Source: Phycisphaerae bacterium (GTDB taxonomy: Bacteria > Planctomycetota > Phycisphaerae > UBA1845 > Fen-1342). Taken from it: DNA of 64,000 bases. The stretch spans positions 237,276-301,275 of the forward strand of contig JAGNKU010000001.1 in assembly GCA_017999985.1 (NCBI GenBank). The letters run 5' to 3'. The position numbers and the translations under genes are program-made. A model generated the notes under the pieces. It ran no database searches. It was not told the DNA's origin and saw nothing but the letters and a program-made list of their open reading frames with translations. Positions 7,669 to 25,933 of this stretch are shown here, piece after piece. How positions within the stretch are numbered: position 1 is the stretch's first letter; each line of letters opens with the position of its first letter.

Positions 7669-8787
7669 GTGCTGACGGAGAAATCGAACGTCTTCGTGAC
7701 CGGCGCTACCGGGCTGATCGGTGGCGAGCTGGTGCGGACCTTGGTCACGGAGCCGATCGGCAAAGTCTGGGCCCTGGTGCGCGTGCGCCAGGATGCCTCG
7801 CCTGAGCATCGGCTGGCCCACCGGCTGCGGCGTTCGAGTGGCCCGCCGCCCGGCGTGGCTGTGCGCATGCGCGCGGTGGCCGGCGACGTCAGCGTCCCGC
7901 GGCTCGGGCTCAGCGACGCGGACTATGACGAAGTGCGCCGCGAGGCCGACATCATTATCCACAGCGCGGCCGAGACGTCGTTCATCCGCGCCGCGGACTG
8001 CCAGCGCACCAACATCGCCGGCGCGCAAAACCTGATTGAATTCACGCGCTCCTGCCAGCGCCACCCGTTGCTGGTCTGCCTGAGCACGGCGTACGTGAGC
8101 GGCGTCATCGCCAACGCGTGCATCTCGGAAGAAGACAGTTGCCGGCCGGACAGCGCGCACCACAACGAGTACACGCGCTCGAAGGCGGTGGCTGAGGAGC
8201 TGGTGCGCACCAGCGGCCTGCCCGTGCTGCTCACCCGGCCGTCGATCGTGCTCAGCGCCGGCGTGCCCGATGCGGCCTTCGCGAAAGCCATCCTGGGTTT
8301 CGTCCCCGCGCTGAACGAACTGGACGCGGTGCCGGTCAACCCCGCCGCCCGAGCCGACACGGTGCCGGTGCAGTTCGTGGTGGACAGTATCATCCGCCTG
8401 CTGCAACGGCCGCGGCTGCGGTACGACTGCTACCATATCTCGGCCGGCAACGCGAACGCGGACAACTACGGCCAGTTGGCGCGGGTCCTCGACACCTATT
8501 ATGAGCGGAGCACGCCGCTGCGGCTGATCGCTCCGTCACAGTGGACGCGCGAGGTGCACCGCCAGTACATCCACCTGCCCGAGCAGCGCCGGATCTTTGC
8601 CGCGCTGCGAAACTACCTGCCGTTCCTGAACATGAACGTGCTGTACGACAATTCGCGGCTGCGCGACGAGCTGGGTGCCGATTTTCCCCCGCTGCCGCCG
8701 CTGACGGCCTACCTCGGCGAGCTACTGCACCTGATGGCCGCGCATCATCATGGCCCGCGCCGCGCAGTGCGCGCGGCCCGCGGCTGA
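7669..8787 (+). CDS. NAD-dependent epimerase/dehydratase-family protein resembling fatty-acyl reductase / thioester-reductase (extended SDR)
   Basis: VFVTGATGLIGGELVRTL is a Rossmann GxxGxxG, YTRSK is the catalytic YxxxK, and the overall layout matches the male-sterility/thioester-reductase family. GTG 7669 is my chosen start; the track begins at TTG 7651. Confidence 0.75.
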   Translation: MLTEKSNVFVTGATGLIGGELVRTLVTEPIGKVWALVRVRQDASPEHRLAHRLRRSSGPPPGVAVRMRAVAGDVSVPRLGLSDADYDEVRREADIIIHSAAETSFIRAADCQRTNIAGAQNLIEFTRSCQRHPLLVCLSTAYVSGVIANACISEEDSCRPDSAHHNEYTRSKAVAEELVRTSGLPVLLTRPSIVLSAGVPDAAFAKAILGFVPALNELDAVPVNPAARADTVPVQFVVDSIIRLLQRPRLRYDCYHISAGNANADNYGQLARVLDTYYERSTPLRLIAPSQWTREVHRQYIHLPEQRRIFAALRNYLPFLNMNVLYDNSRLRDELGADFPPLPPLTAYLGELLHLMAAHHHGPRRAVRAARG

Positions 8788-8815
8788 CGCGCGTCTCCCG
8801 GCCGCCGTAACCAAC

Positions 8816-9499
8816 TCAAGGCTCCACGCGTCGCAGAAAATACCACGTTCCCAGCGCGAAGCACGCAATCCCCAGGACCGGGGCCAGGCGGTTGAACCAC
8901 CAGGCCGCGTCAAACGGCGCCGGCTCGCGGCTCCAGCTGATGCAGAACAGGACCGCGCCCAGGAGCATCGGCGCGAGCAGGCCGATCGCGGTCGCGAAGG
9001 CCGAGCTGTCGAGCAGCGCCGACCCCAGCCACGCCGCCCCAAACAGCAATACCGCAATCGCCGCAATGATGGGCAGCTCTGACACTTTCCCAGCGCGAAA
9101 CGCCCAGGGCACGCTCGGCAGCCAGGGCGCCACGACGTAGATCAAAGCCAAGTTGATCAACCAGACCGCGGCGCAGGCACCGAACGCGACGCTGAACTTG
9201 CTCGCCAGAATCTGGCGGCGCGTCGGCGGCAGGTACGCCAGGAACTCGGCCGAGCGATCAACGCGCTCGCTGGCGATGGCGTTGCCGGCCAGGGCCACGA
9301 CGGTCAGCAGGGATGCGACCAGGCTGAAGAAGGCGAGTTCCTGGCAAACGACGCCGGGGAGTGGCAGCAGCTCGCCGATGCGCAGCCAGCGGTGCAGATC
9401 GTACCCGCCCGCGACCGCGAACGGCATTACCAGCAGCACAGCGCCGATGAGCAGCAACAGGCGATTCGCCCGCAAATCTTTCCAGAGTAGCGCTTTCAT
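8816..9499 (-). CDS. ABC-2 family transporter permease
   Basis: Six predicted TM segments. Its ATG overlaps the stop of the upstream ATPase gene (ATGA), indicating translational coupling. Confidence 0.7.
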   Translation of the reverse strand: MKALLWKDLRANRLLLLIGAVLLVMPFAVAGGYDLHRWLRIGELLPLPGVVCQELAFFSLVASLLTVVALAGNAIASERVDRSAEFLAYLPPTRRQILASKFSVAFGACAAVWLINLALIYVVAPWLPSVPWAFRAGKVSELPIIAAIAVLLFGAAWLGSALLDSSAFATAIGLLAPMLLGAVLFCISWSREPAPFDAAWWFNRLAPVLGIACFALGTWYFLRRVEP

Positions 9500-10410
9500 G
9501 CCGGCACCTTCTGACCGCGCACCATGTCCTTGAACACGTCCTCGAGCCCCACGTCGACGACCTCGACACTCGCCACGGCGGCGTCGGCGCGGAGCGCGTC
9601 AACCAACGCCGGCGTGAAGCCGCGCACCGTCAGCAGCCACTCGCGGTTCGCCACGCGCTGCCAGATCGTCCCGGCCGGCGGCGCGCCCGGACGACAGCCA
9701 TCGCGCAGCACCGCCCGGATACGCTTCGTGCCCGTGAGTAATTCGTCCGTCGGGCAATGCGCGAGCAGTCGCCCGTTACAGATGATCCCCACCTCGTCCG
9801 CCAGCCGCTGCACGTCACTCAATGTGTGACTGGAGAACAACACCGTTCTCTGGCGTGCACAGATCGTCCGCAGCACGCCGTCGAGAAATTCCTCGCGCAT
9901 GAGGGGGTCCAGTCCGGACGTGGGCTCATCGAGGATCAAGAGCTCGGGCTCGTGCGCGACCGCGAGCAGCAGCGCCAGTTTCGCCACCATCCCCTTCGAG
10001 AGCTGCTTGATCCGTCGGCGCGGGTCCAGCTCGAAGATGTCCAGCAGTTCGCCGCAGAACTGGTCGTTCCACGTCGGGTAGAACGTCCGGCAGAAGGCGA
10101 TCACCTCGGACACGCGCATCCAGCGATACATGAAGTGCAGCTCGGGCACGTAACCCACACGGTGCTTGAGCCCCTCGGCCCGCGGGCCCACGTCCTGGCC
10201 GAGCAGCCGCGCCCGGCCGGCGGTCGGCGACAGAACCCCGATGAGCATGCGGATGGTCGTGCTCTTGCCCGCCCCGTTCGGGCCGATGAATCCGAACACG
10301 CTGCCCGCCCGAACCGTGAGATTCAAATTGTCCACGGCGAGCGTGCGGCCAAAACGCCGCGTGAGACCCATCGTTTCAATGGCGGCCACTGCGGCCGGTT
10401 CTGCGTTCAT
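9496..10410 (-). CDS. ABC transporter ATP-binding protein
   Basis: Walker A GPNGAGKST, signature LSKGMVAKLALL, Walker B LLILDEPTSGLD and H-loop FSSHTL. Confidence 0.9.
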   Translation of the reverse strand: MNAEPAAVAAIETMGLTRRFGRTLAVDNLNLTVRAGSVFGFIGPNGAGKSTTIRMLIGVLSPTAGRARLLGQDVGPRAEGLKHRVGYVPELHFMYRWMRVSEVIAFCRTFYPTWNDQFCGELLDIFELDPRRRIKQLSKGMVAKLALLLAVAHEPELLILDEPTSGLDPLMREEFLDGVLRTICARQRTVLFSSHTLSDVQRLADEVGIICNGRLLAHCPTDELLTGTKRIRAVLRDGCRPGAPPAGTIWQRVANREWLLTVRGFTPALVDALRADAAVASVEVVDVGLEDVFKDMVRGQKVPA

Positions 10411-10796
10411 GGGTCATTCCTCACTTCCGACACCTGGCCCCAGGCGCGCTCGAACAGCGCGCGCACCTGCTCTGGCGGGAGCTTGGCGCTCCGCGCGGCC
10501 CGGAGCGTCTGGACGAAGCCCGCCAGCACCGCGGCCTGCGACTGGCTCTGGGCTGAAGCCAGCCCGTCCTGCGCGACGAACATGCCCAGCCCCTTCCGCG
10601 CCTCGATCAACCCCTCGCGCTCCAGTTCGTCGTACGCCCGTTGGACGGTGTTGGGATTCACGATCAATTCCTGCGCAAGCACGCGGAGCGAGGGAATCGC
10701 CTCGCCCGGCCGAAACACGCCAGCCGCGACCGCCCGCCGGATGTACCCTGCGATCTGCTGGTAAATCGGAACGGGACTGTGGGGATCGACGCTCAA
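10407..10796 (-). CDS. GntR-family transcriptional regulator (YtrA subfamily), first gene of the GntR-ABC operon
   Basis: HTH region SPVPIYQQIAGYIRRAVAAGVFRPGEAIPSLRVLAQELIVNPNTVQRAYDELEREGLI. The track start is GTG 10823. TTG 10796 has a GGAG RBS 7 nt upstream, and its product (MSVDPHSPVPIYQQI) matches the usual YtrA N-terminus. Confidence 0.8.
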   Translation of the reverse strand: MSVDPHSPVPIYQQIAGYIRRAVAAGVFRPGEAIPSLRVLAQELIVNPNTVQRAYDELEREGLIEARKGLGMFVAQDGLASAQSQSQAAVLAGFVQTLRAARSAKLPPEQVRALFERAWGQVSEVRNDP

Positions 10797-17293: not shown

Positions 17294-19486
17294 CTACGGT
17301 TGTTTGGCCGCCGCGACGAACTCGCGCGGCCACGGCAGGTTCGCCGCCAGCTTCACGCGCACCAGCAGCAGCGCCGTCTCGAGCTGCGGATCGACCTTCG
17401 GCGCTTCGTTCGGATCCGCTTCGAGCTGCTTGATGTCATCCTCGCTCAGCAGCGGCGGGTCCTCGTTTTGCGATTTCTCATCGGCCTTCAGCGCGTCGAG
17501 CACGCGCGCCCGTTCGTCCTCGCTGAGCGCCTTGTTCTCGCCGGAACTCTGTTCGTTATGAATGATGTAGGTCTCGCGCTCGCGCTCGATGACCCGCCGC
17601 AGCTCCTTGGGCGTCAGCTTCAGCTCCCAGTCGGGCTCGACGCCCCACTGCTCGGCCTTCGGCGCCTTGTGCGGACTGCGCCCGCTGGGCAGATAGTACA
17701 GGGCCGTCGTCAGCTTCAGCTTCGCATCGTCGTTCAGCGGCCGCACGTGCTGCACGCTGCCTTTGCCGAACGTCCGCTCACCCAGGATGAGCGCGCGGTG
17801 ATGGTCCTGCAGCGCACCAGCCAGAATCTCGGAGGCGCTCGCGCTGCTGTCGTTCGCCAGCACAACCAGCGGCAGATCCTTGTACGCCGCGGCCCCGCCG
17901 ACGCGCTCGCGCTGATCCGACTCCACCCGCCCGCGCGTCGAGACGACTTCGCCTTCCGGCAGGAACGTGCTCACGATGTCGATCGCGACATCCAGCAGCC
18001 CGCCCGGGTTGTAGCGCACGTCCAGCACCAGGCCCTTCATGCCCTGGGCCCTGGCCGCGTCCAGCGCCTCGCGCAGCTCATCGGCCGAATCCGGGTGAAA
18101 ACCGGTCAGCCGGATGTAGGCCACGCCGGCGTCCTTGTCCAACATGTAGTTCCACGCCTTCGCGTCGCCGGGCACGCGTTCCAGGCCCCGCACCGTCGGC
18201 AGGACAATCCGGCGGCGCGACAGCTTGAAGGGAATCGTCTCGCCTGTGCTGGGCCGCTGAATCGTCAGCACGACCTCGGTGCCGGCCGGCCCCATGATGT
18301 TACGGACGGCGTCGTCGGTGTCCCAGCCGGACGTGCTCTGGTCATCGACGGCGATGATCAGGTCGTCGGGGTGCACACCCGCCTCGAGCGCCGGCGAGTT
18401 TTCCAGAGGCGTGACCACCTTGAGGCGGTTCGTGCGCTCATCCATGCCGAGCTGGATGCCGACGCCCTCGAAGCCGCCCATCATCATCTTCTCGAAATCG
18501 ACCGCGTCGGCCGGCCAGATCATGCCGGTGTAGTCGTCCAGTTTTCCGATCGCGCCCTCCAGGAACTCGACCACCAGCAGGCTCTCGGGGATCTCGATGC
18601 TCTCGCGATTCAGATCGTTCACCTGGTTGAACAGCCGCAGCAGGTCCTTCTGGCCGTAGCTCTTCTCCGCCTGGACCTCCTTGCGCAGCTCACCCAGCCG
18701 CTTGACGAAATGCTCGCGCAGCGTCGGGTTGCCGAGGCCGTCCATGTACTCGCGCAGCTTGGTCACGCTGGCGAGCGTCACCAGGTTGTCCAAGGCCCCG
18801 GTCGCGAGTTCCCTGAAGTCCGGCTCGCGGTAGTACAGGTGATCGATCAGCTTGACGGCCGAGCGCAGCAGACCCTTGTCGACGCGCCGGATCCGCTCCT
18901 GCAGGGACTTCTGGTCCTTGTAGGCCAGCTCGATCCGCGCATGCCGCACGGCGTTCTCGCTCGCCGCGCGCAACTCCTCGTCCTTGGGGTGAATGCGGGT
19001 CAGCAGCAGGTAGTAATTCAGGGCGTCCTTCCAGTGATCTTCCTGCTCGAGCTGCCGGGCCGTCTCGGTGGCGCTCTTGGTCAGCTCGACGACCCACGGC
19101 AGGCTCGTCAGATTGTCGCCCTCGGGGGCGTAGGGCACCGCCTGCGCGACAAAGTTCAGCGCCACAAACGGCTTCGCGTCCGCCAGCGCCTTCTGCGCCT
19201 GCTCGATGTTCCACTCGAACGTCTTGGCCTTCAGCTCCTTGCGGGAGGCGACGACCTTGTGGTAGTCCTCCAGCCAGTTCTGCACACGTCCGGCAGCCGC
19301 ATCGTGCTCGGTGGTCGCCAGCCGCTCGATCGTCGCCCGGCCGGCGTCGTAGTCGCCGCGGAGGATGGCGGCGTAGGCCGTCGCGAGCGTTTCGTCCCCG
19401 GCCACGGCCCAAACCGGCGCCAGCAGGAGCCCGACGAGCAAGGCCAGACGCGCGTAACGTGCTGCCATGTACACACTTCCTTTCAA
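17294..19486 (-). CDS. C-terminal processing peptidase (S41 family, tail-specific protease) with PDZ domain
   Basis: Signal peptide, PDZ region (GVGIQLGMDERTNRLKVVTPLENSPALEAGVHPDDLIIAVD), and S41 catalytic region (GLVLDVRYNPGGLL ... SASASEILAGALQDHHRALILGERTFGKGSVQ). Confidence 0.9.
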   Translation of the reverse strand: MKGSVYMAARYARLALLVGLLLAPVWAVAGDETLATAYAAILRGDYDAGRATIERLATTEHDAAAGRVQNWLEDYHKVVASRKELKAKTFEWNIEQAQKALADAKPFVALNFVAQAVPYAPEGDNLTSLPWVVELTKSATETARQLEQEDHWKDALNYYLLLTRIHPKDEELRAASENAVRHARIELAYKDQKSLQERIRRVDKGLLRSAVKLIDHLYYREPDFRELATGALDNLVTLASVTKLREYMDGLGNPTLREHFVKRLGELRKEVQAEKSYGQKDLLRLFNQVNDLNRESIEIPESLLVVEFLEGAIGKLDDYTGMIWPADAVDFEKMMMGGFEGVGIQLGMDERTNRLKVVTPLENSPALEAGVHPDDLIIAVDDQSTSGWDTDDAVRNIMGPAGTEVVLTIQRPSTGETIPFKLSRRRIVLPTVRGLERVPGDAKAWNYMLDKDAGVAYIRLTGFHPDSADELREALDAARAQGMKGLVLDVRYNPGGLLDVAIDIVSTFLPEGEVVSTRGRVESDQRERVGGAAAYKDLPLVVLANDSSASASEILAGALQDHHRALILGERTFGKGSVQHVRPLNDDAKLKLTTALYYLPSGRSPHKAPKAEQWGVEPDWELKLTPKELRRVIERERETYIIHNEQSSGENKALSEDERARVLDALKADEKSQNEDPPLLSEDDIKQLEADPNEAPKVDPQLETALLLVRVKLAANLPWPREFVAAAKQP

Positions 19487-19790
19487 AACGACGCGGCCCG
19501 CAGGCCGCCCGTGTGCCGCTCAGCATGGGTAAAGCGCTGCTCCACCCACCTTGTACGTATTATACGACCGTGCGGATTCGCCGCCCACGTCGCAACTTTC
19601 TCATCGGCCGGCCGCAGACAAGTTCCCACAAAAAGCACGGCCGCGGTATTGTCTGCCCTCCAGCCCGCCTCCGCCCCGGAAAAACGCCCGGACCGCGACG
19701 GGCCCCGGCCTGAGAAGGCGGTTCGAGTCGCTGCCACCCGCGCGGGCCGCGCGCGGAAAATCGCGCAGGTCCCCTTTTGCGGGACCGAAA

Positions 19791-20366
19791 ATGCGGCATG
19801 ATGCCGGCATGGCAACGGCACGTCCGAACCCGTCCGGCGACGCAGAGCTCGTGCTCGGGATCGACCCCGGGCTGCAGCGCACCGGCTATGCGGTGCTTGC
19901 GCCCGCACCGACGCCGCGCGAGGGACACCTCGTCGAGGCCGGCGTCATCCGGCTGCGGCGCGAGCACGCACTCACCGCGCGATTGATCGAACTGGAAGAC
20001 GCACTGACCACGCTGCTGTCGCGCCATCATCCGCAGGCGCTGGCGTGCGAGGAGCTCTACGCGCACTACAAACACCCGCGGACGGCGATCCTGATGGCCC
20101 ATGCGCGCGGCGTCATCCTGGCCTGCGCCGCCCGCCACGGATTGCAGATCATCTCCATCGCCGCCACGAACGTGAAAAAGCTGCTGACGGGCAACGGCCA
20201 CGCGGGCAAACGCCAGGTGCAGCTCGCTGTCGCGGCGACGCTGCACCTGCCCGCGATTCCCGAGCCGAGCGACGTGGCCGACGCCATCGCGATCGCGCTG
20301 GCCGGCGCGCGGCTGCGCTGTGCCGCGTCCGTCGTGGCCAAAGCGACGAGGAGGGCCCGCGCGTGA
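19791..20366 (+). CDS. ruvC: Crossover junction endodeoxyribonuclease RuvC
   Basis: LVLGIDPGLQRTGYAVL (catalytic Asp), ALACEELYAHYKHPRTAILMAHARGVI and SDVADAIAIAL. The start is ATG at M81 of track ORF 19551..20366; the alternative ATG at 19809 is also possible. Confidence 0.9.
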   Translation: MRHDAGMATARPNPSGDAELVLGIDPGLQRTGYAVLAPAPTPREGHLVEAGVIRLRREHALTARLIELEDALTTLLSRHHPQALACEELYAHYKHPRTAILMAHARGVILACAARHGLQIISIAATNVKKLLTGNGHAGKRQVQLAVAATLHLPAIPEPSDVADAIAIALAGARLRCAASVVAKATRRARA

Positions 20367-20983
20367 TCTGCCGGCTGACCGGACGACTGGTGAGCGTGTC
20401 GGAAGAGACTGCTGTCATCGACCTCGGCGGCGTCGGCTACGAAGTCATGGTGCCCGCGGCGACAATCGGCGAACTCCACACCCACATCGGGCAGGACATC
20501 ACGCTCTTCACGGTGCAGTACTTCGAGGGCAATCCGGCGGGGGCGCACCTGATCCCGCGGCTGGTCGGGTTCGTCACCGAGGCGGACCGCGATTTCTTCC
20601 GCCTGTTCACGAAGGTAAAGGGCATCAGCAGTCGGCGGGCGCTGCGGGCGATGAGCGTGCCGGCGCATCAACTCGCCGCCGCGATCGAGCACGGCGATAC
20701 GCGCCTGCTGACGACATTGCCGGAGATCGGCAAGAAGATGGCCAGCCAGATTCTGGCCGAAATGCAGGGTCATTGTCAGGCATTCCTGATACCCGAGGCC
20801 GTGCCGCCGCCGATCGCCGAGCTGACCGACGCGCAGCGGATCGCGCTCGACATTCTCGTGCAATGGGGCGATCGCCGGGCGGATGCGCAGCGCTGGATCG
20901 CGGCGGCGGTGGAAGCCGACCCGAGCCTGAAGGTGCCCGAGGACATCGTCCGGGCGGCGTATCGCGCGAAGCAGGCGCTGTAG
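20363..20983 (+). CDS. ruvA: Holliday junction branch-migration protein RuvA
   Basis: VICRLTGRLVSVSEETAVIDLGGVGYEVMVP, the helix-hairpin-helix region LPEIGKKMASQILAEM, and a C-terminal RuvB-binding domain. A GTG start overlaps the ruvC stop (GTGA). Confidence 0.9.
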   Translation: MICRLTGRLVSVSEETAVIDLGGVGYEVMVPAATIGELHTHIGQDITLFTVQYFEGNPAGAHLIPRLVGFVTEADRDFFRLFTKVKGISSRRALRAMSVPAHQLAAAIEHGDTRLLTTLPEIGKKMASQILAEMQGHCQAFLIPEAVPPPIAELTDAQRIALDILVQWGDRRADAQRWIAAAVEADPSLKVPEDIVRAAYRAKQAL

Positions 20984-21012
20984 ACGCGGCCTTTGACGCG
21001 GGATGGGAAGCA

Positions 21013-21627
21013 ATGATGGCAAACGGGGTGTGCCCGATCTGTCGGACGGAGATGGCCGCCGGCACGGCGGTGTGCGTGGCGTGCGGCTTCAATGCGATCG
21101 AAGACGCACCGTTGCCGGGCTGGGTGCGAGAGGGCGTGGACCTGCGCACCGTGGCCCGTCGGCAGCGCCTGCTTCTGTGGTTGGTACTGGGGCTGCTCGC
21201 ACTGCAGGTGTTCTTGCGCACGCAGTCGTTTAGTAATCCGCTCATGTTCACCCTTCTCGTGGTAATCCTGTTCGCTACGATGATCGGCGTCGCCGTCACG
21301 GTCGTCACCCTCATGGTCGCGCTCCGGCGACATGTGATTGTCTGCGTGCTGTACACAATCCTGATGTTCGCGCCCTGCGTGAACCTGATTGTTCTGCTGA
21401 TCATCAACCAACAGGCCACCACGGCACTCCGCAAGGCCGGGCTCCGCGTCGGGCTCATGGGCGTAAAAGACGAGCAGGTCGTCCGCCTCTTGGGGCTCTA
21501 CTGCTGCCGCAAGTGCAGCTACAGCCTGATCGGTAACGTCTCCGGCGTCTGCCCGGAATGCGGCACGCCGGTCGGCACGGGCCTACACGGCCCCGGCCCG
21601 ACAGTGCCGGCGCGGCCGGCCCCTTAA
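21013..21627 (+). CDS. Membrane protein with N- and C-terminal zinc ribbons, inserted between ruvA and ruvB
   Basis: MMANGVCPICRTEMAAGTAVCVACGF (CxxC...CxxC), three or four TM helices, and a C-terminus CRKCSYSLIGNVSGVCPECGTPV. The C-terminal motif is shared with the paralog at 22756..23226. Confidence 0.6.
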   Translation: MMANGVCPICRTEMAAGTAVCVACGFNAIEDAPLPGWVREGVDLRTVARRQRLLLWLVLGLLALQVFLRTQSFSNPLMFTLLVVILFATMIGVAVTVVTLMVALRRHVIVCVLYTILMFAPCVNLIVLLIINQQATTALRKAGLRVGLMGVKDEQVVRLLGLYCCRKCSYSLIGNVSGVCPECGTPVGTGLHGPGPTVPARPAP

Positions 21628-21658
21628 CTCGCGGCGAACAACCGGCTACCCTTTGCGC

Positions 21659-22690
21659 ATGGCGATCGAACGCGTCTTCACGCAACCCGGCCCCGACGAA
21701 GAGCGGTTCCTGACCTCCCTCCGCCCGCAGCGCCTCGACGAGTGCGTCGGCCAGGAAGTCGTCCGCGAGCAGCTCCGCATCGCGCTCGACGCCGCCCGCA
21801 AGCGTGGCGAGCCGCTCGATCATGTGCTGCTCGACGGCCCGCCCGGGCTCGGCAAGACCACGCTCGCCCACGTCATCGCCACCGAGATGGGCGCCGCCGT
21901 CCGCGTCACCAGCGGGCCGGCGATCGCCCGCCAGGGCGACCTGATGATGATGCTCACGCAGCTCGACACCGGCGACGTGCTCTTCATCGACGAGGTGCAC
22001 CGGCTCGCGAAGGTCGTCGAGGAATTCCTGTACCCCGCGCTCGAGGACTTCCGCGTCGACTACACGACCGAGAGCGGCATAGGCGGCCGGACGGTGAATT
22101 TCGCGCTGAAGCGCTTCACAATGGTCGGCGCGACGACGCGGGCCGGCATGCTGTCGGCGGCGCTGCGCGACCGGTTCGGCCTGCTGTTCCACCTCCAGTA
22201 CTACACCGAACCAGAGCTGGTCCGCATCGTCGAGCGCAACGCCGCGCTGCTGAAGATCCAGGCCGACCCCGCCGCCCTGGCGCGCCTGGCGTCGCGCTCG
22301 CGCGGCACGCCGCGGATCGTGAATCGCCTGCTGCGGCGAGTGCGGGATTACGCCGATGTCCGCGGCGACGGCACGCTGACGCCGGCGGTCGTGGACATGG
22401 CGCTCGACATTCTGCAGATCGACCGGCTGGGGCTCGACAATCTCGACCGCGCGTACCTGCAATCGCTGATCAAGCACTACGACGGCGGCCCGGCGGGGAT
22501 CGAGGCGATCGCGGCGACGATGGGCCACGAACGCGACACGCTCGAAGACGTGGTCGAGCCGTACCTGCTGCAGATCGGCTTCGTCATCCGCACTCCGCGC
22601 GGCCGAGTCGCCCGCCCGGCGGCGTACGAGCACCTGGGCCTCGCAACGCCGAAGCGGGCCAATAACGAGCCAGGCCTGTTCGACGCGTAA
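21659..22690 (+). CDS. ruvB: Holliday junction DNA helicase RuvB
   Basis: Walker A GPPGLGKTTLA, Walker B LFIDEVHRL, sensor TTRAGMLSAALRDRFG, and a winged-helix C-terminus. Confidence 0.95.
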   Translation: MAIERVFTQPGPDEERFLTSLRPQRLDECVGQEVVREQLRIALDAARKRGEPLDHVLLDGPPGLGKTTLAHVIATEMGAAVRVTSGPAIARQGDLMMMLTQLDTGDVLFIDEVHRLAKVVEEFLYPALEDFRVDYTTESGIGGRTVNFALKRFTMVGATTRAGMLSAALRDRFGLLFHLQYYTEPELVRIVERNAALLKIQADPAALARLASRSRGTPRIVNRLLRRVRDYADVRGDGTLTPAVVDMALDILQIDRLGLDNLDRAYLQSLIKHYDGGPAGIEAIAATMGHERDTLEDVVEPYLLQIGFVIRTPRGRVARPAAYEHLGLATPKRANNEPGLFDA

Positions 22691-22755
22691 GGCATAGGCG
22701 CCGGCTTCACCACGACGGGTGAATCCACGTGAGTCAGCCGTAGTACAATGACACG

Positions 22756-23226
22756 ATGAGAATCTCACGGCGTGGATTCCGCATAGGCGCTTGGGCAACG
22801 AGCCTGCTCGCCGTGCTGCTCTTGGCCGTGTACCCGTTCAGCTATCGCCTTTGGGTCGGCCCGTGGAGCGAGAAAGCAGGCATCGGCTGCATGATTTGCT
22901 GGCGTCAGGCGTGTTGTTACTGGTGGACCACTGGGCACGGCGAAGCGGGCCTCACTTGGTGCTACTTGCAGGCGGTGGAAGGACGACCTTGGCCATCGAT
23001 ATCGATCTGGGCAGAACCACGGGTGGGCTGCGTCTGCGTTCCCCTGTGGATCCCGCCGGTGCTGTCTGCGGGGCTCTCGTGCATCTGCTGGTACCGTAGC
23101 CGCGGTCGCAAGCCCGGCACCTGCCACAATTGCGGGTACGATCTCACCGGCAACATCAGCGGCGTGTGTCCGGAGTGCGGCGGTACGGTCACCAGAGACT
23201 TGACGGCCACGGATAAGCACGGATGA
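22756..23226 (+). CDS. Membrane protein with C-terminal zinc ribbon, paralog of 21013..21627
   Basis: TM helix (WATSLLAVLLLAVYPF), a Cys/Trp-rich middle (CMICWRQACCYWW), and C-terminal CHNCGYDLTGNISGVCPECGGTV, which is nearly identical in pattern to the upstream paralog (CxxCxYxLxGNxSGVCPECG). Confidence 0.6.
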   Translation: MRISRRGFRIGAWATSLLAVLLLAVYPFSYRLWVGPWSEKAGIGCMICWRQACCYWWTTGHGEAGLTWCYLQAVEGRPWPSISIWAEPRVGCVCVPLWIPPVLSAGLSCICWYRSRGRKPGTCHNCGYDLTGNISGVCPECGGTVTRDLTATDKHG

Positions 23227-23597
23227 ACACGGATTCTGAGCCGCCGGATCGGACTACGCGCCGGTTATCGTGGCGCTCGCCCCAGTATCCGGACGTAGAG
23301 CGCGCGAGGGCAGCCTCCGGTCCGAGCTGCGCATGTGGCCACCAGCGCTGTTCGATTCGGGAATCCCCCACCCCTAAAAGCCCGGCCGCAATCGTCAACC
23401 CGCAGCCGCGCGAATACGGGACGCCGTAAGCTGCTACCGCAACTTCTGCATCGCCGGGTCGCGAAAACTTGACCGGGAGCGGGAACGAATTGGATACTCC
23501 CCCTCGGGCCCCTACCCGGGCCCTTGGGTTACGGGACACGATCACTTCCAGGGACGCGCAACTTCCGTTTCGGCGTTTCGCCGATCGGAGCGTTGTC

Positions 23598-24166: not shown

Positions 24167-25933
24167 CTATGCGACGCTCAGAATGCGCCGCCGCGCACAG
24201 GCCCGCCGAATCGCCGGAAACACGAAACGCTCCGCGACCACGTCCCACCCCATCTCCTTCGCCAGGCCATGCCCCGCCTGCACCAGTTTGGCCTCATCCT
24301 CCGGCGACTGCGGCAGGCGCTTGAAGACCTGGTCGGCGAGCTGCTCGGCGAGCTTGACCTCGACTTCCCGCCGTTCGTCCGCCTCGATCGCCAGCGAGTC
24401 CTTCACCGTCCGCGGCCGGCGCACCTGGTCGATGTAGTTCGCGAGGATGACGTTCGGCACGCGCTTCGTGCCCATGACTTTCTTCAGGAAACCCGTGCAG
24501 CCGCAGGTCGTGCTCACCAGGCACAACCCGCCGTACGTGAGCGTCTCCAGCGGCGAGATCCCGAACGGCTCGTACAGGCTCAGGCCGAACTCGACGTCGC
24601 TGGCCCGGCGGATGTCGAGGAACTCGAGGTCTTCCGGCACGCGGCGGCCGCCGCGCTCGCGGCCGAAGCCAAACTGGTTGATGTAGATGATCCGGGTGTT
24701 GCGGGCCCGCGCGTTGAAGGCCTGCACCCACTGGTAGTAACGCGCCTCGCCGGGCGAGAGATCGGGCGGCCCTTCGCGATGCGTGAGCGGCCAGTCCCAC
24801 GTCTGCTCCATGTGCAGGACATCCGCCGCCGAGCGCCGCGGCTGGTCGGTGGACAGCACCAGCATCACGGCCCGCTGGCCATGCGCGACGAATTTCTCGT
24901 CGAGCGCCATGAGCACGTCGACGTCGCGCCACATGGCCTTGCTCTGCGCCATGCGCGTCACGTGCGTGAACACGCGGTCGGGCCGCCAGCCGAGCAGGTT
25001 CTCGCAGTACGCCCCGACCCGCGCACGGCTGGCCTGCCGGTCTTCGAGCTTGATCGGCCGCGACGGCACGCCGTTGTACGCCAGCATGATGTCAGCGTCG
25101 TCGAAGTCGCGATTGACGAAGCGCAGTTCATCGACGACGCGGTGCCCGACCGCGAGCAGCCCGTCGCAGTGCCGGGCCGCCTCGACTACCGCGTACTTGT
25201 GGTAGTCGTGCTGCGGGCCGAAGACGTGCTCCAGGTACAGATCGCCGTCCGCCGCCGCCCGCAGCGCGTTGTAGAACATCACGTCGTGCCCGGGGTGGCG
25301 CTCGACGATTCGGCGAACGGGCGCGACCTCGTGGGCATAGAACAGCGTGCGATAGCGCTGCGGGTGCTGGGCCTGCAGCGCCAGCGCCGTGGGCACGCCC
25401 ACGAACTCGTGCGCAAACACCACCGCCGGCGCGTCCTTCGTCCCCAGCCGCAGGGCCTCCGCCGCCGCCACCACCGGCGGGGCCAGCCGCACGTATTGCT
25501 CGTATTCCCAGATGTGCTCGTACGAGTCCGAGCGCAGGCCGAAGTGCTCCCACAACCGCCCCTTCAGCTCGTTCACGCGCGGCATAAGGATGCCGCGCAG
25601 ATCGACGAGGAGCACTTCGCAGACGGTGCGGCGGGCCGACGGCTCATCCTCAAGCGGCCGGCGCCCGTAGACCAGCCGCACGCCGTAGTCGCGCTCGATC
25701 TGGCGAAAGGCCTGCGCGTAGGGCCCGTCCTGGCGCTGATCCAGCGAGGAGTACTCGATGACGCCGCCGGGGCCGAGGCGCTCGGGATTGTCCGGGTAGT
25801 AAAGCGGGCAGACCAGCACGGTGCGGCCCACGCCGTCGCGATAGGGCCGACTGTTGATCAGGCCTTCGAGGACGGTGCCGATGCCCCCGACCTTATGCAC
25901 CGCTTCATGCGAGACGTGGATGGCGTTAAACAC
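24167..25933 (-). CDS. Glycosyltransferase resembling glycogen(starch) synthase of the eukaryote/archaeal type (GT3/GT4 superfamily)
   Basis: The N-terminus FNAIHVSHEAVHKVGGIGTVLEGL parallels the GT3 glycogen-synthase motif (E-x-A-x-K-VGGI-x-TV); a GT-B C-terminal half follows (EPFGISPLE). The long plus-strand ORF 23987..26167 is its antisense. Confidence 0.55.
   Translation of the reverse strand: MFNAIHVSHEAVHKVGGIGTVLEGLINSRPYRDGVGRTVLVCPLYYPDNPERLGPGGVIEYSSLDQRQDGPYAQAFRQIERDYGVRLVYGRRPLEDEPSARRTVCEVLLVDLRGILMPRVNELKGRLWEHFGLRSDSYEHIWEYEQYVRLAPPVVAAAEALRLGTKDAPAVVFAHEFVGVPTALALQAQHPQRYRTLFYAHEVAPVRRIVERHPGHDVMFYNALRAAADGDLYLEHVFGPQHDYHKYAVVEAARHCDGLLAVGHRVVDELRFVNRDFDDADIMLAYNGVPSRPIKLEDRQASRARVGAYCENLLGWRPDRVFTHVTRMAQSKAMWRDVDVLMALDEKFVAHGQRAVMLVLSTDQPRRSAADVLHMEQTWDWPLTHREGPPDLSPGEARYYQWVQAFNARARNTRIIYINQFGFGRERGGRRVPEDLEFLDIRRASDVEFGLSLYEPFGISPLETLTYGGLCLVSTTCGCTGFLKKVMGTKRVPNVILANYIDQVRRPRTVKDSLAIEADERREVEVKLAEQLADQVFKRLPQSPEDEAKLVQAGHGLAKEMGWDVVAERFVFPAIRRACARRRILSVA

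Follow-up and report, generated by a model that had tools for sequence, protein, structure and literature searches.

We find that a Holliday-junction operon, ruvC-ruvA-ruvB, in a 64,000-nucleotide (nt) stretch of a Phycisphaerae genome (the whole of this stretch is called the window) carries two additional genes for small membrane proteins, X between ruvA and ruvB and X' after ruvB, which end in the same zinc ribbon. An earlier note on this DNA had described the arrangement and proposed either that the two proteins tether the RuvAB machinery to the membrane or that they are unrelated hitch-hikers duplicated in place. Of these, the unrelated hitch-hiker fits best, and we lean, with little more than even confidence, towards X and X' being passengers, co-transcribed with ruvCAB but without a direct part in the RuvAB-RuvC machine. 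It is unlikely that either protein is a subunit of that machine, and the weak neighbourhood statistics of X make a weak case for tethering. The Ruv genes themselves are ordinary; the operon arrangement is new, and both membrane proteins come from families that are uncharacterised beyond a generic four-cysteine (Cys4) ribbon. The genes, in a region of 68% G+C, are as follows.

19809..20366, + strand: ruvC, Holliday-junction endonuclease, 185 amino acids (aa) (Pfam RuvC, E 1e-36)
20363..20983, + strand: ruvA, 206 aa (Pfam RuvA_N 2.1e-12, HHH_5 9e-7)
21013..21627, + strand: X, 204-aa inner-membrane protein with a zinc ribbon at both ends (translation, homologs, family alignment A1, AlphaFold2)
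21659..22690, + strand: ruvB, branch-migration AAA+ motor, 343 aa (Pfam RuvB_N 1.9e-68, AAA_lid_4 2.2e-26, RuvB_C 1.6e-23)
22756..23226, + strand: X', 156-aa two-helix membrane protein (translation, family alignment A2, AlphaFold2)

All three Ruv proteins carry their full Pfam domain sets above curated cut-offs and, together with the translations, these matches confirm the gene order ruvC-ruvA-X-ruvB-X'. The coupling of ruvC to ruvA by GTGA is likewise borne out, the GTG start of ruvA at 20363 overlapping the TGA stop of ruvC at 20364-20366. The start of ruvB is most likely the ATG at 21659 (MAIERVF, shared with all homologs) rather than the TTG at 21653, and X may start at 21016 instead (MANG, compare homolog P0001). 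A single strand is used throughout, with spacers of 29, 31 and 65 nt (ruvA/X, X/ruvB and ruvB/X'), a tight spacing that fits the co-transcription proposed in the earlier note; no + strand promoter-like or terminator-like site was matched in these three spacers. Upstream of ruvC lies a divergent S41/PDZ peptidase gene (17294-19486, - strand) and downstream of X' a 588-aa open reading frame (ORF) on the opposite strand (24167-25933, - strand), so that the transcription unit would span ruvC to X'. From spacing and strand, we infer that ruvCAB, X and X' are read as one transcript. The 588-aa ORF has a G+C content at third codon positions (GC3) of 0.91 and keeps 98% nucleotide identity in the related loci L008 and L095, and it has no Pfam match at E<=0.001. 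An Rfam scan of the entire window returned zero families. Several long spurious ORFs overlap the region, as expected of high-GC DNA.

X and X' resemble each other in one short module, a C-terminal Cys4 ribbon with the consensus CxxC-[GS]-Y-x-L-[TI]-G-N-x-S-G-x-CPECG. The translation of X carries a C-terminal CRKCSYSLIGNVSGVCPECGTPV and that of X' (22756-23226) ends in CHNCGYDLTGNISGVCPECGGTV, which confirms the shared unusual motif of the earlier note, and a six-frame regular-expression search over the 64 kb found the ribbon, even as bare CPECG, at these two places only. BLASTP aligned X with X' over the 23-residue ribbon (65% identity) and no further. The rest of each protein belongs to a distinct family, so the earlier description of the two as paralogs holds only in part. 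Duplication in place is not supported: the X family comprises ~40 clusters against 52,313 for X', and X members found elsewhere lie on deeper branches of the tree. Given that X-family members occur in many other contexts, on deeper branches of the midpoint-rooted tree, X did not originate at this locus.

The four cysteines of each ribbon form two CxxC knuckles (CPIC..CVAC and CRKC..CPEC in X, CHNC..CPEC in X'), and the Cys columns are invariant both in A1, the X-family alignment of 35 sequences with 16 invariant columns, and in A2, its X'-family counterpart. Pfam scores fall under the gathering thresholds (for X, DZR_2 19.0 bits vs 27 and DZR 17.6 vs 27.3; for X', DUF7129 18.5 vs 30), and a DZR match at E<=0.01 is found in 32 of 35 X-family and 16 of 62 X'-family members, some family members scoring better than the window proteins (best E 1.2e-8). 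Pfam and NCBIfam searches with X, X', a further ribbon protein X'' of L008 and the family alignments gave only this generic zinc ribbon, below cut-offs, and no NCBIfam model applies; the zinc-ribbon reading of the earlier note stands in its generic form. No PADLOC family reached E<=0.01 with X, X', X'' or the two L095 proteins, sequence-profile searches of the PDB gave trivial CPECG or zinc-finger matches only, and a literature search found nothing relevant on the CPECG motif or on a zinc ribbon in Phycisphaerae.

Outside the C-terminal ribbon, X has a conserved architecture of its own:

21031..21090, + strand: N-terminal zinc ribbon CPICR-x11-CVACG, residues 7-26 (sequence; sub-cut-off Pfam DZR/DZR_2)
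21142..21405, + strand: membrane core, residues 44-131, with a DLRxVARRQRxLLW juxtamembrane motif and three hydrophobic helices (AlphaFold2, invariant columns)
21415..21483, + strand: basic segment ATxALRxAGLRVGLMGVxDEQVV, residues 135-157 (invariant G143, G147, G150 and D153)
21505..21564, + strand: C-terminal ribbon cassette CRKCSYSLIGNVSGVCPECG (regular-expression match; 65% identity to the X' ribbon over 23 aa)

The N-terminal CPICR...CVACG ribbon noted earlier is present in the translation, and in A1 it is missing from a few family members. AlphaFold2 predicts long hydrophobic helices in both proteins, in agreement with the membrane character that the earlier note gave them. In X these are helices 44-70, 76-103 and 108-118/121-141, the third being kinked at the invariant Pro121 (APCxNL), and the confidence score of the model (predicted local distance difference test, pLDDT) is 78. 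The window copy carries every A1 motif, namely DLRxVARRQRxLLW, APCxNL with its invariant Pro, AGLRVGLMGVxD and the C-terminal CxxC..CPECG, whose cysteines C165, C168, C180 and C183 are invariant; segment 135-157 is the family signature and served as the X-specific pattern in collection scans. The family comprises ~40 full-length homologs, 39-95% identical, from Phycisphaerales-type metagenome bins (phmmer E 1e-29 to 1e-121 for 39 members). The ratio of nonsynonymous to synonymous substitution rates (dN/dS) of X is 0.20 whether a near or a far relative is taken for comparison. Its purifying selection is thus comparable to that on ruvA (0.17-0.41; ruvB 0.05-0.15), and its GC3 of 0.84 is native (ruvA 0.86). 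Lysine and arginine counts show a basic N-flank, loop 2 and C-flank and a loop 1 that is not basic; on these counts both ribbons would be cytoplasmic only if helix 3 forms a hairpin. Foldseek of the AlphaFold2 model against the PDB returned nothing at E<=0.001, and tblastn of X against plasmids gave no match.

X' is built on a different plan, with two mapped conserved elements:

23041..23103, + strand: PLWIP motif and second transmembrane (TM) helix, residues 96-116 (A2 invariant columns; AlphaFold2 helix 99-116)
23122..23181, + strand: C-terminal ribbon cassette CHNCGYDLTGNISGVCPECG (regular-expression match; blastn block from window position 23112)

In the A2 family a basic N-terminus and a first TM helix (TM1) lead into a variable middle (~70 residues). 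An invariant PLWIP then precedes TM2, and an Arg-rich stretch and the ribbon close the protein; P96, W98 and P100 are invariant in addition to the ribbon. X' fits this layout, with RISRRGFRIGAW and TM1, VPLWIPP and TM2, WYRSRGRKPG and then the ribbon. Its AlphaFold2 helices span 5-31 and 99-116, and in the middle domain pLDDT is only 36-64, which leaves the fold uncertain there. Lysine and arginine counts suggest that the N-terminus and ribbon of X'-type proteins are cytoplasmic. Of 1.84 billion cluster representatives, the A2 profile matches 52,313 at E<=1e-3; the number falls to 16,128 at E<=1e-10 and to 956 at E<=1e-30. X' itself has orthologs at 99% and 72% identity and 298 more matches, the full-length ones at 31-38% identity including P0128, P0105 and P0054; tblastn against phages gave no match. 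Its constraint is relaxed (dN/dS 0.50), its GC3 is 0.75 vs 0.86-0.92 in neighbours, and it is a fast-evolving, ordinary member of a giant ribbon-tailed family.

We then consider how common the shared ribbon is. A collection scan with X-derived patterns, using one genome per species, matched at least 600 stretches, of which 401 were confirmed among the matches listed; among these listed matches nearly all were ribbon-only, and all lay in Planctomycetota or Phycisphaerae bins. The homologs of X and X' also come from Phycisphaerae and Planctomycetota metagenome-assembled genomes. We counted 161 strict ribbons in 89 examined loci, and 34 of the 89 carry 2-7 ribbons, mostly on one strand and 400-700 bp apart. 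Tandem arrays reach seven copies in L064 and six in L036 and L063:

L064 1765-4517, L036 10001-12831, L063 and L051, one strand in each: arrays of 5-7 small genes ending CxxCGY[DN]LTGNxSGxCPECG, ~450 bp apart

When 233 non-ribbon proteins encoded within two genes of ribbon genes at 74 loci were clustered in search of a partner gene, no recurrent family emerged, the lone exception being a large surface-repeat protein at 5 loci. The ribbon can also be N-terminal, as in X'' of L008, and it flanks RDD-type cores in L047. The L047 segment 64-3831 holds recA, a small RibD_C-like gene and, after these, two tandem genes (258 and 250 aa) whose products both have an RDD-like membrane core between an N-terminal ribbon and the same C-terminal ribbon, a third architecture with this module. 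We rejected L047 as a case of an X homolog beside recA; these RDD-type proteins match X through the two ribbons only.

The history of X was followed by tblastn of the window Ruv proteins against all fetched loci, which gave these X-containing arrangements (identities to the window proteins):

L008, L090 and L095: ruvC-ruvA-X-ruvB or the contig's part of it; X 95%, RuvA 95% (L008, L090), RuvB 97-99% (L008, L095)
L009: ruvA-X-ruvB; X 57%, RuvA 73%, RuvB 89%
L011: ruvC-ruvA-X-ruvB; X 53%, RuvA 63%, RuvB 87%
L093/L109: S41 peptidase, then ruvC-ruvA-X-ruvB; X 47%, RuvA 71%, RuvB 87%
L094: ruvC-ruvA-X-ruvB; X 48%, RuvA 68%, RuvB 89%

The order ruvA-X-ruvB is thus retained in at least five lineages. 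Orthologs of ruvC, 59-99% identical, occupy the same position in L008, L011, L093, L094, L109 and L112, and ruvB orthologs in the related loci are 78-99% identical. An uninterrupted ruvAB, which the earlier note had named as a sign against the arrangement, was found in the more distant L112 only and in none of L008/L090/L095, L009, L011, L093/L109 and L094. L112 (RuvA 68%, RuvB 78%; a 370-kb contig), the only outgroup inspected, reads S41 peptidase, then ruvC-ruvA-128 nt-ruvB, and its ruv locus holds neither X nor an X remnant. Within the ruvA-ruvB spacer of L112 (5625-5752), CTGACCACTGACCACTGAACACTGATAACTGAAAAC forms a short, degenerate tandem motif. A neighbour-joining tree of 28 X sequences groups the ruv-linked ones in one clade, with the unlinked L001 and L102 nested inside, a pattern that points to one insertion of X between ruvA and ruvB, with occasional relocation afterwards. 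At 58-74% identity there are >120 RuvA clusters vs ~40 X clusters, and ~20 independent X homologs lie elsewhere, in mutually different contexts with no ruv gene nearby.

The public annotation of one of these relatives deserves comment. At L008 1923-2927 (GCA_030153585.1, JASEKO010004728.1) the public call is a 326-aa minus-strand ORF with no Pfam match; the + strand of the same stretch encodes a RuvB 97% identical to that of the window, and the minus-strand call is spurious. The L008 assembly also seems locally frameshifted, the ruvB frame extending to 3659, X' being split over two frames and X'' reading CPEFG for CPECG.

The position after ruvB behaves differently from the one before it. Its content differs between strains whose flanks are 96-98% identical (blastn), and the variable slot and its alternatives are as follows.

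22684..23111, unstranded: strain-variable slot (blastn block boundaries, window vs L095 or L008)
Window: 65 nt, then X'
L008: a 676-bp insertion with X'' (181 aa, N-terminal ribbon) ahead of X', and an extra 952-bp insertion after X'
L010: X''-X'
L095: 816 bp in place of window 22684-23111, encoding a 180-aa membrane protein and a different 104-aa ribbon protein
L093/L109: a 120-aa ribbon protein (called as 90-aa)
L094: an unrelated 308-aa gene
L011: a TPR membrane protein
L112: a 245-aa membrane protein with the C-terminal end PGHCRICDYNLHGLIEPRCPECG

The 676-bp insertion of L008 marks the left edge of the slot, and homology with L095 restarts at window position 23112, 10 nt before the X' ribbon. 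Because near-identical strains carry different genes here, X' is not a conserved partner of ruvB. Orthology among the post-ruvB ribbon proteins of L095, L093 and the window was rejected, as they align mutually only over TM2 and the ribbon. For the two ORFs of the earlier note the outcome is therefore split: X is conserved, with ~40 homologs, a dN/dS of ~0.2 and retention in the ruvA-X-ruvB clade, whereas X' is not conserved as a fixed ruvB partner.

Further changes are seen beyond the slot. The 952-bp insertion of L008 (4144-5095, against window ~23238-23244) holds a fragment of an endonuclease/exonuclease/phosphatase-family gene (Pfam 2.3e-7), and the blastn blocks flanking it overlap by 7 bp. 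Two genes past the post-ruvB ribbon gene of L109 lies an IS110-family transposase (7796-8629, - strand; Pfam Transposase_20), and the matching position in L093 (8952-9845) is occupied by a minus-strand ORF of 297 aa. The L109 transposase fits a plastic zone downstream of ruvB.

Taken together, these data suggest how the locus may have arisen. An ordinary Holliday-junction operon would have acquired two mutually unrelated passenger genes that share one short ribbon module. This ribbon is a common tail of small inner-membrane proteins in Phycisphaerae and Planctomycetota; its placement after a TM helix and an Arg-rich stretch would put it on the cytoplasmic face of the membrane, and since its loop is near-invariant while the remainder of the protein varies freely, it could serve as a docking knob for one common cytoplasmic partner. 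X, with this knob at its C-terminus, a generic ribbon at its N-terminus and a conserved three-helix core, would have entered once between ruvA and ruvB and then been kept in the clade by purifying selection, presumably read through with ruvCAB. The content of the X' slot would have been exchanged between strains with ribbon-coding DNA at the right-hand junction, which suggests cassette exchange at the ribbon. A permissive insertion site, together with a tendency of ribbon genes to cluster and replace each other, would then explain the position of both genes.

Several observations weigh against so neutral a role. Of five informative lineages, three (the window group, L093/L109 and L112, which lacks X) have a ribbon-tailed gene directly 3' of ruvB, and against a background of ~48 ribbons/Mb in ribbon-rich genomes (~5% per kb) this has P ~0.001 if the three cases are independent. 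The excess is more than pure hitch-hiking predicts, unless one old adjacency has been maintained by cassette exchange; both an old arrangement kept by exchange at the ribbon and selection for a ribbon gene at this place fit the recurrence. That X has stayed in an essential repair operon over synonymous divergences (dS) of 0.5-1.8 is likewise in keeping with a shared function. The docking role of the ribbon is conjectural, and no recurrent neighbour gene is found beside the arrays. Finally, repair or recombination genes, counted within two genes of X, occur in 5 of ~22 independent X contexts (the ruvAB clade, L012, L002, L014 and L001), for which the binomial tail is 0.03-0.12 at an 8-12% chance per context, the pattern having been noticed post hoc.

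These five contexts differ in kind. In L012, fpg, a hypothetical gene and X are co-directional and chained by 4-bp overlaps; this segment (8656-10618), with fpg/mutM, a 147-aa lipoprotein-like ORF and the X homolog, is the tightest coupling of X to a repair gene outside ruv. X and uvrB are co-directional in L002, recA lies two genes from X and convergent with it in L014, and dnaE2/imuB are likewise two genes away and convergent in L001. Genes for Mg2+ channels also adjoin X in two contexts of unrelated lineages (nominal P 0.001-0.004, equally post hoc):

L110 3527-5564: mgtE upstream of X
L102 37-1660: corA downstream of X

In L110 the gene after X encodes another ribbon protein. The remaining neighbours of X are unrelated, among them aminoacyl-tRNA synthetases, argJ, rpe, an ABC transporter, NAPRTase, a Kazal protein, TerB and others. 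A control in which the repair panel had zero matches in 1.04 Mb of ribbon-only loci was discarded as circular, the panel having been picked from X neighbours. A DNA-damage link of X is possible on this evidence, which is suggestive only and statistically weak.

Among the alternatives to the passenger reading, it is possible, though not probable, that the ribbon-tailed genes (X', X'' and their counterparts in L095, L093 and L112) form a diversifying cassette system in which a constant cytoplasmic ribbon is combined with swapped variable membrane or periplasmic parts, ruvB merely bordering the site. By analogy, such a system could be likened to arrays of variable surface, immunity or sensor proteins. 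The tandem arrays of up to 7 copies and the 52,313 clusters in which only TM2 and the ribbon are conserved argue for it, as do the replacement between strains, whose junction lies 10 nt ahead of the ribbon, a 74-bp nucleotide similarity between ribbons of unrelated loci (L066), and the dN/dS of 0.5 and low GC3 of X'. However, the exchange is seen at a single junction, the left one being simply the end of ruvB, and no conserved partner, toxin or recombinase gene stands beside the arrays. No PADLOC defence model matched, no phage or plasmid copies were found, and the slowly evolving, conserved X would be left unexplained.

The main rival to the passenger reading, which we consider rather unlikely, is that X, and perhaps the post-ruvB ribbon gene too, is made with RuvCAB and acts at the membrane in a DNA-damage or recombination response. 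Two variants of this are possibilities. X could be a brake on envelope growth or division, by analogy with the damage-induced small inner-membrane division inhibitors, an established class found near repair genes that includes SidA and DidA of Caulobacter and YneA of Bacillus (PMC4211646, PMC13396833), or it could anchor repair complexes or DNA to the membrane through its two cytoplasmic ribbons. That at least five lineages keep X within ruvCAB, where selection on it matches that on ruvA in strength, is consistent with such a role, and so are the ribbon-tailed gene after ruvB even in L112 and the X homologs beside fpg, uvrB, recA and dnaE2/imuB. Yet this enrichment (5 of ~22, P 0.03-0.12) is weak and post hoc and is matched by the equally post-hoc theme of MgtE and CorA (P ~0.001-0.004), most X homologs have unrelated neighbours, and recA and dnaE2 are convergent with X and not co-transcribed. 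Further, L112 copes without X, X with 204 aa and several helices is unlike the short single-pass inhibitors, and in four lineages the DNA upstream of ruvC showed no LexA-box-like palindrome, with the reservation that the motif of this phylum may differ.

Two further explanations can be set aside. That X and X' are true paralogs, in-place duplicates of one ancestor, is very improbable: both end in the same 23-residue ribbon and their genes lie 1.6 kb apart, but no similarity extends beyond the ribbon, the cores differ (DLRxVARRQR...APCxNL...AGLRVGLMG in X vs PLWIP in X'), X homologs occur alone at many other loci and X'-type genes at thousands, and L011 and L094 have X with no post-ruvB ribbon gene while L112 has the reverse. 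We give next to no credence to the two ORFs being chance open frames of a 68% G+C genome, for although such DNA is rich in long spurious ORFs, several of which overlap this region, and the public annotation of a sister genome called the ruvB region on the wrong strand, the homologs of the ORFs number from dozens to tens of thousands and share conserved motifs, dN/dS is <1, and GC3 exceeds GC2 (second codon positions) in the proposed frames.

The region upstream of ruvC holds two conserved blocks, one of which is AT-rich:

19558..19596, unstranded: AT-rich element TATTATACGAC...CGCAAC (a ~40-nt block also upstream of ruvC in L011, L093 and L094)

Located between ruvC and the divergently oriented S41 peptidase gene, it has the minus-strand reading TATAAT and is a candidate promoter region for one or both divergent units. 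The other block, 19786-19812 (GAAAAxGCGCATGATG..ATG), lies just 5' of the ruvC start and also occurs in L011, L093 and L094; the two are probably promoter and leader elements. Neither of these blocks contains a LexA-type box, and a search for five known LexA-box types upstream of ruvC in the four lineages gave no match, though the LexA motif of the phylum may be a different one. The PDZ/S41 C-terminal-processing peptidase is divergent from ruvC in all three lineages in which that neighbour is annotated, whether X is present or not:

Window 17294-19486, - strand: S41 peptidase
L109 753-2951: S41 peptidase
L112 1960-4185: S41 peptidase

The wider significance of the locus depends on which reading holds. 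The ruvCAB genes are among the best-understood repair operons, and a conserved, selected membrane gene between the two subunits of the motor is unusual. In a phylum that has been little studied, X offers a specific candidate, open to testing, for a link between recombination repair and the membrane. A bolder idea, which we hold to be improbable, is that the near-invariant ribbon marks a very large undescribed membrane-anchored protein system of Planctomycetota, which X would link to genome maintenance, coupling repair or recombination status to the envelope. If this were true, X, made with RuvCAB here and elsewhere with Fpg or UvrB, might be a damage checkpoint or a membrane anchor of repair complexes, relevant to bacteria with atypical division machinery, and the ribbon-tailed gene that persists after ruvB even without X would share the same function. 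If X and X' are only passengers, the locus would still illustrate clearly that a core operon tolerates insertion and that strains exchange cassettes at a conserved coding motif. A by-product of the work is a family of >50,000 clusters of ribbon-ended small membrane proteins, often in tandem, that has no Pfam or NCBIfam model; the binding target of the ribbon, once found, would annotate a sizeable share of the 'dark' proteomes of Phycisphaerae.

In most bacteria, ruvA and ruvB are adjacent. The window shares with the canonical ruvCAB operon the three genes, their order, their strand and the translational coupling of ruvC to ruvA, and differs from it in that a 204-aa membrane-protein gene separates ruvA from ruvB and a ribbon-tailed membrane gene follows the latter; L112 shows the plain ruvC-ruvA-ruvB in the same S41-peptidase neighbourhood. 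To our knowledge, no membrane zinc-ribbon gene has been described between ruvA and ruvB. The Pfam families DZR (PF12773), DZR_2 (PF18912), Zn_Ribbon_1 and DUF7129 share with the two proteins the two CxxC pairs ~11-12 residues apart; however, these models describe any Cys4 ribbon and do not capture the invariant GY[DN]LTGNxSG loop, the preceding TM helix, PLWIP or the X core. A layout like that of X is found in the RDD proteins P0042 and the two L047 genes, which have an N-terminal ribbon, a polytopic core and a C-terminal CxxC-x-YDLTxNTSGxCPECG, one pair of them near recA. The core of P0042 is nevertheless Pfam PF06271 and its similarity to X is confined to the ribbons (24% identity); RDD was matched only in this ribbon-only hit and neither in X nor in any A1 member. 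No zf-HC2 match of the anti-sigma type was found in the X and X' families and no sigma-factor gene among the neighbours of X homologs, and a known anti-phage defence protein was rejected for want of a PADLOC match. The nearest functional analogy for X is with SidA, DidA and YneA. The genes of these small inner-membrane proteins lie with or near repair genes, and X is co-oriented and tightly spaced with ruvA and ruvB here and with fpg or uvrB in other lineages; unlike these very small, single-pass proteins, it has 204 aa, three predicted helices and two ribbons, shares no sequence similarity with them, and so fails their structural description.

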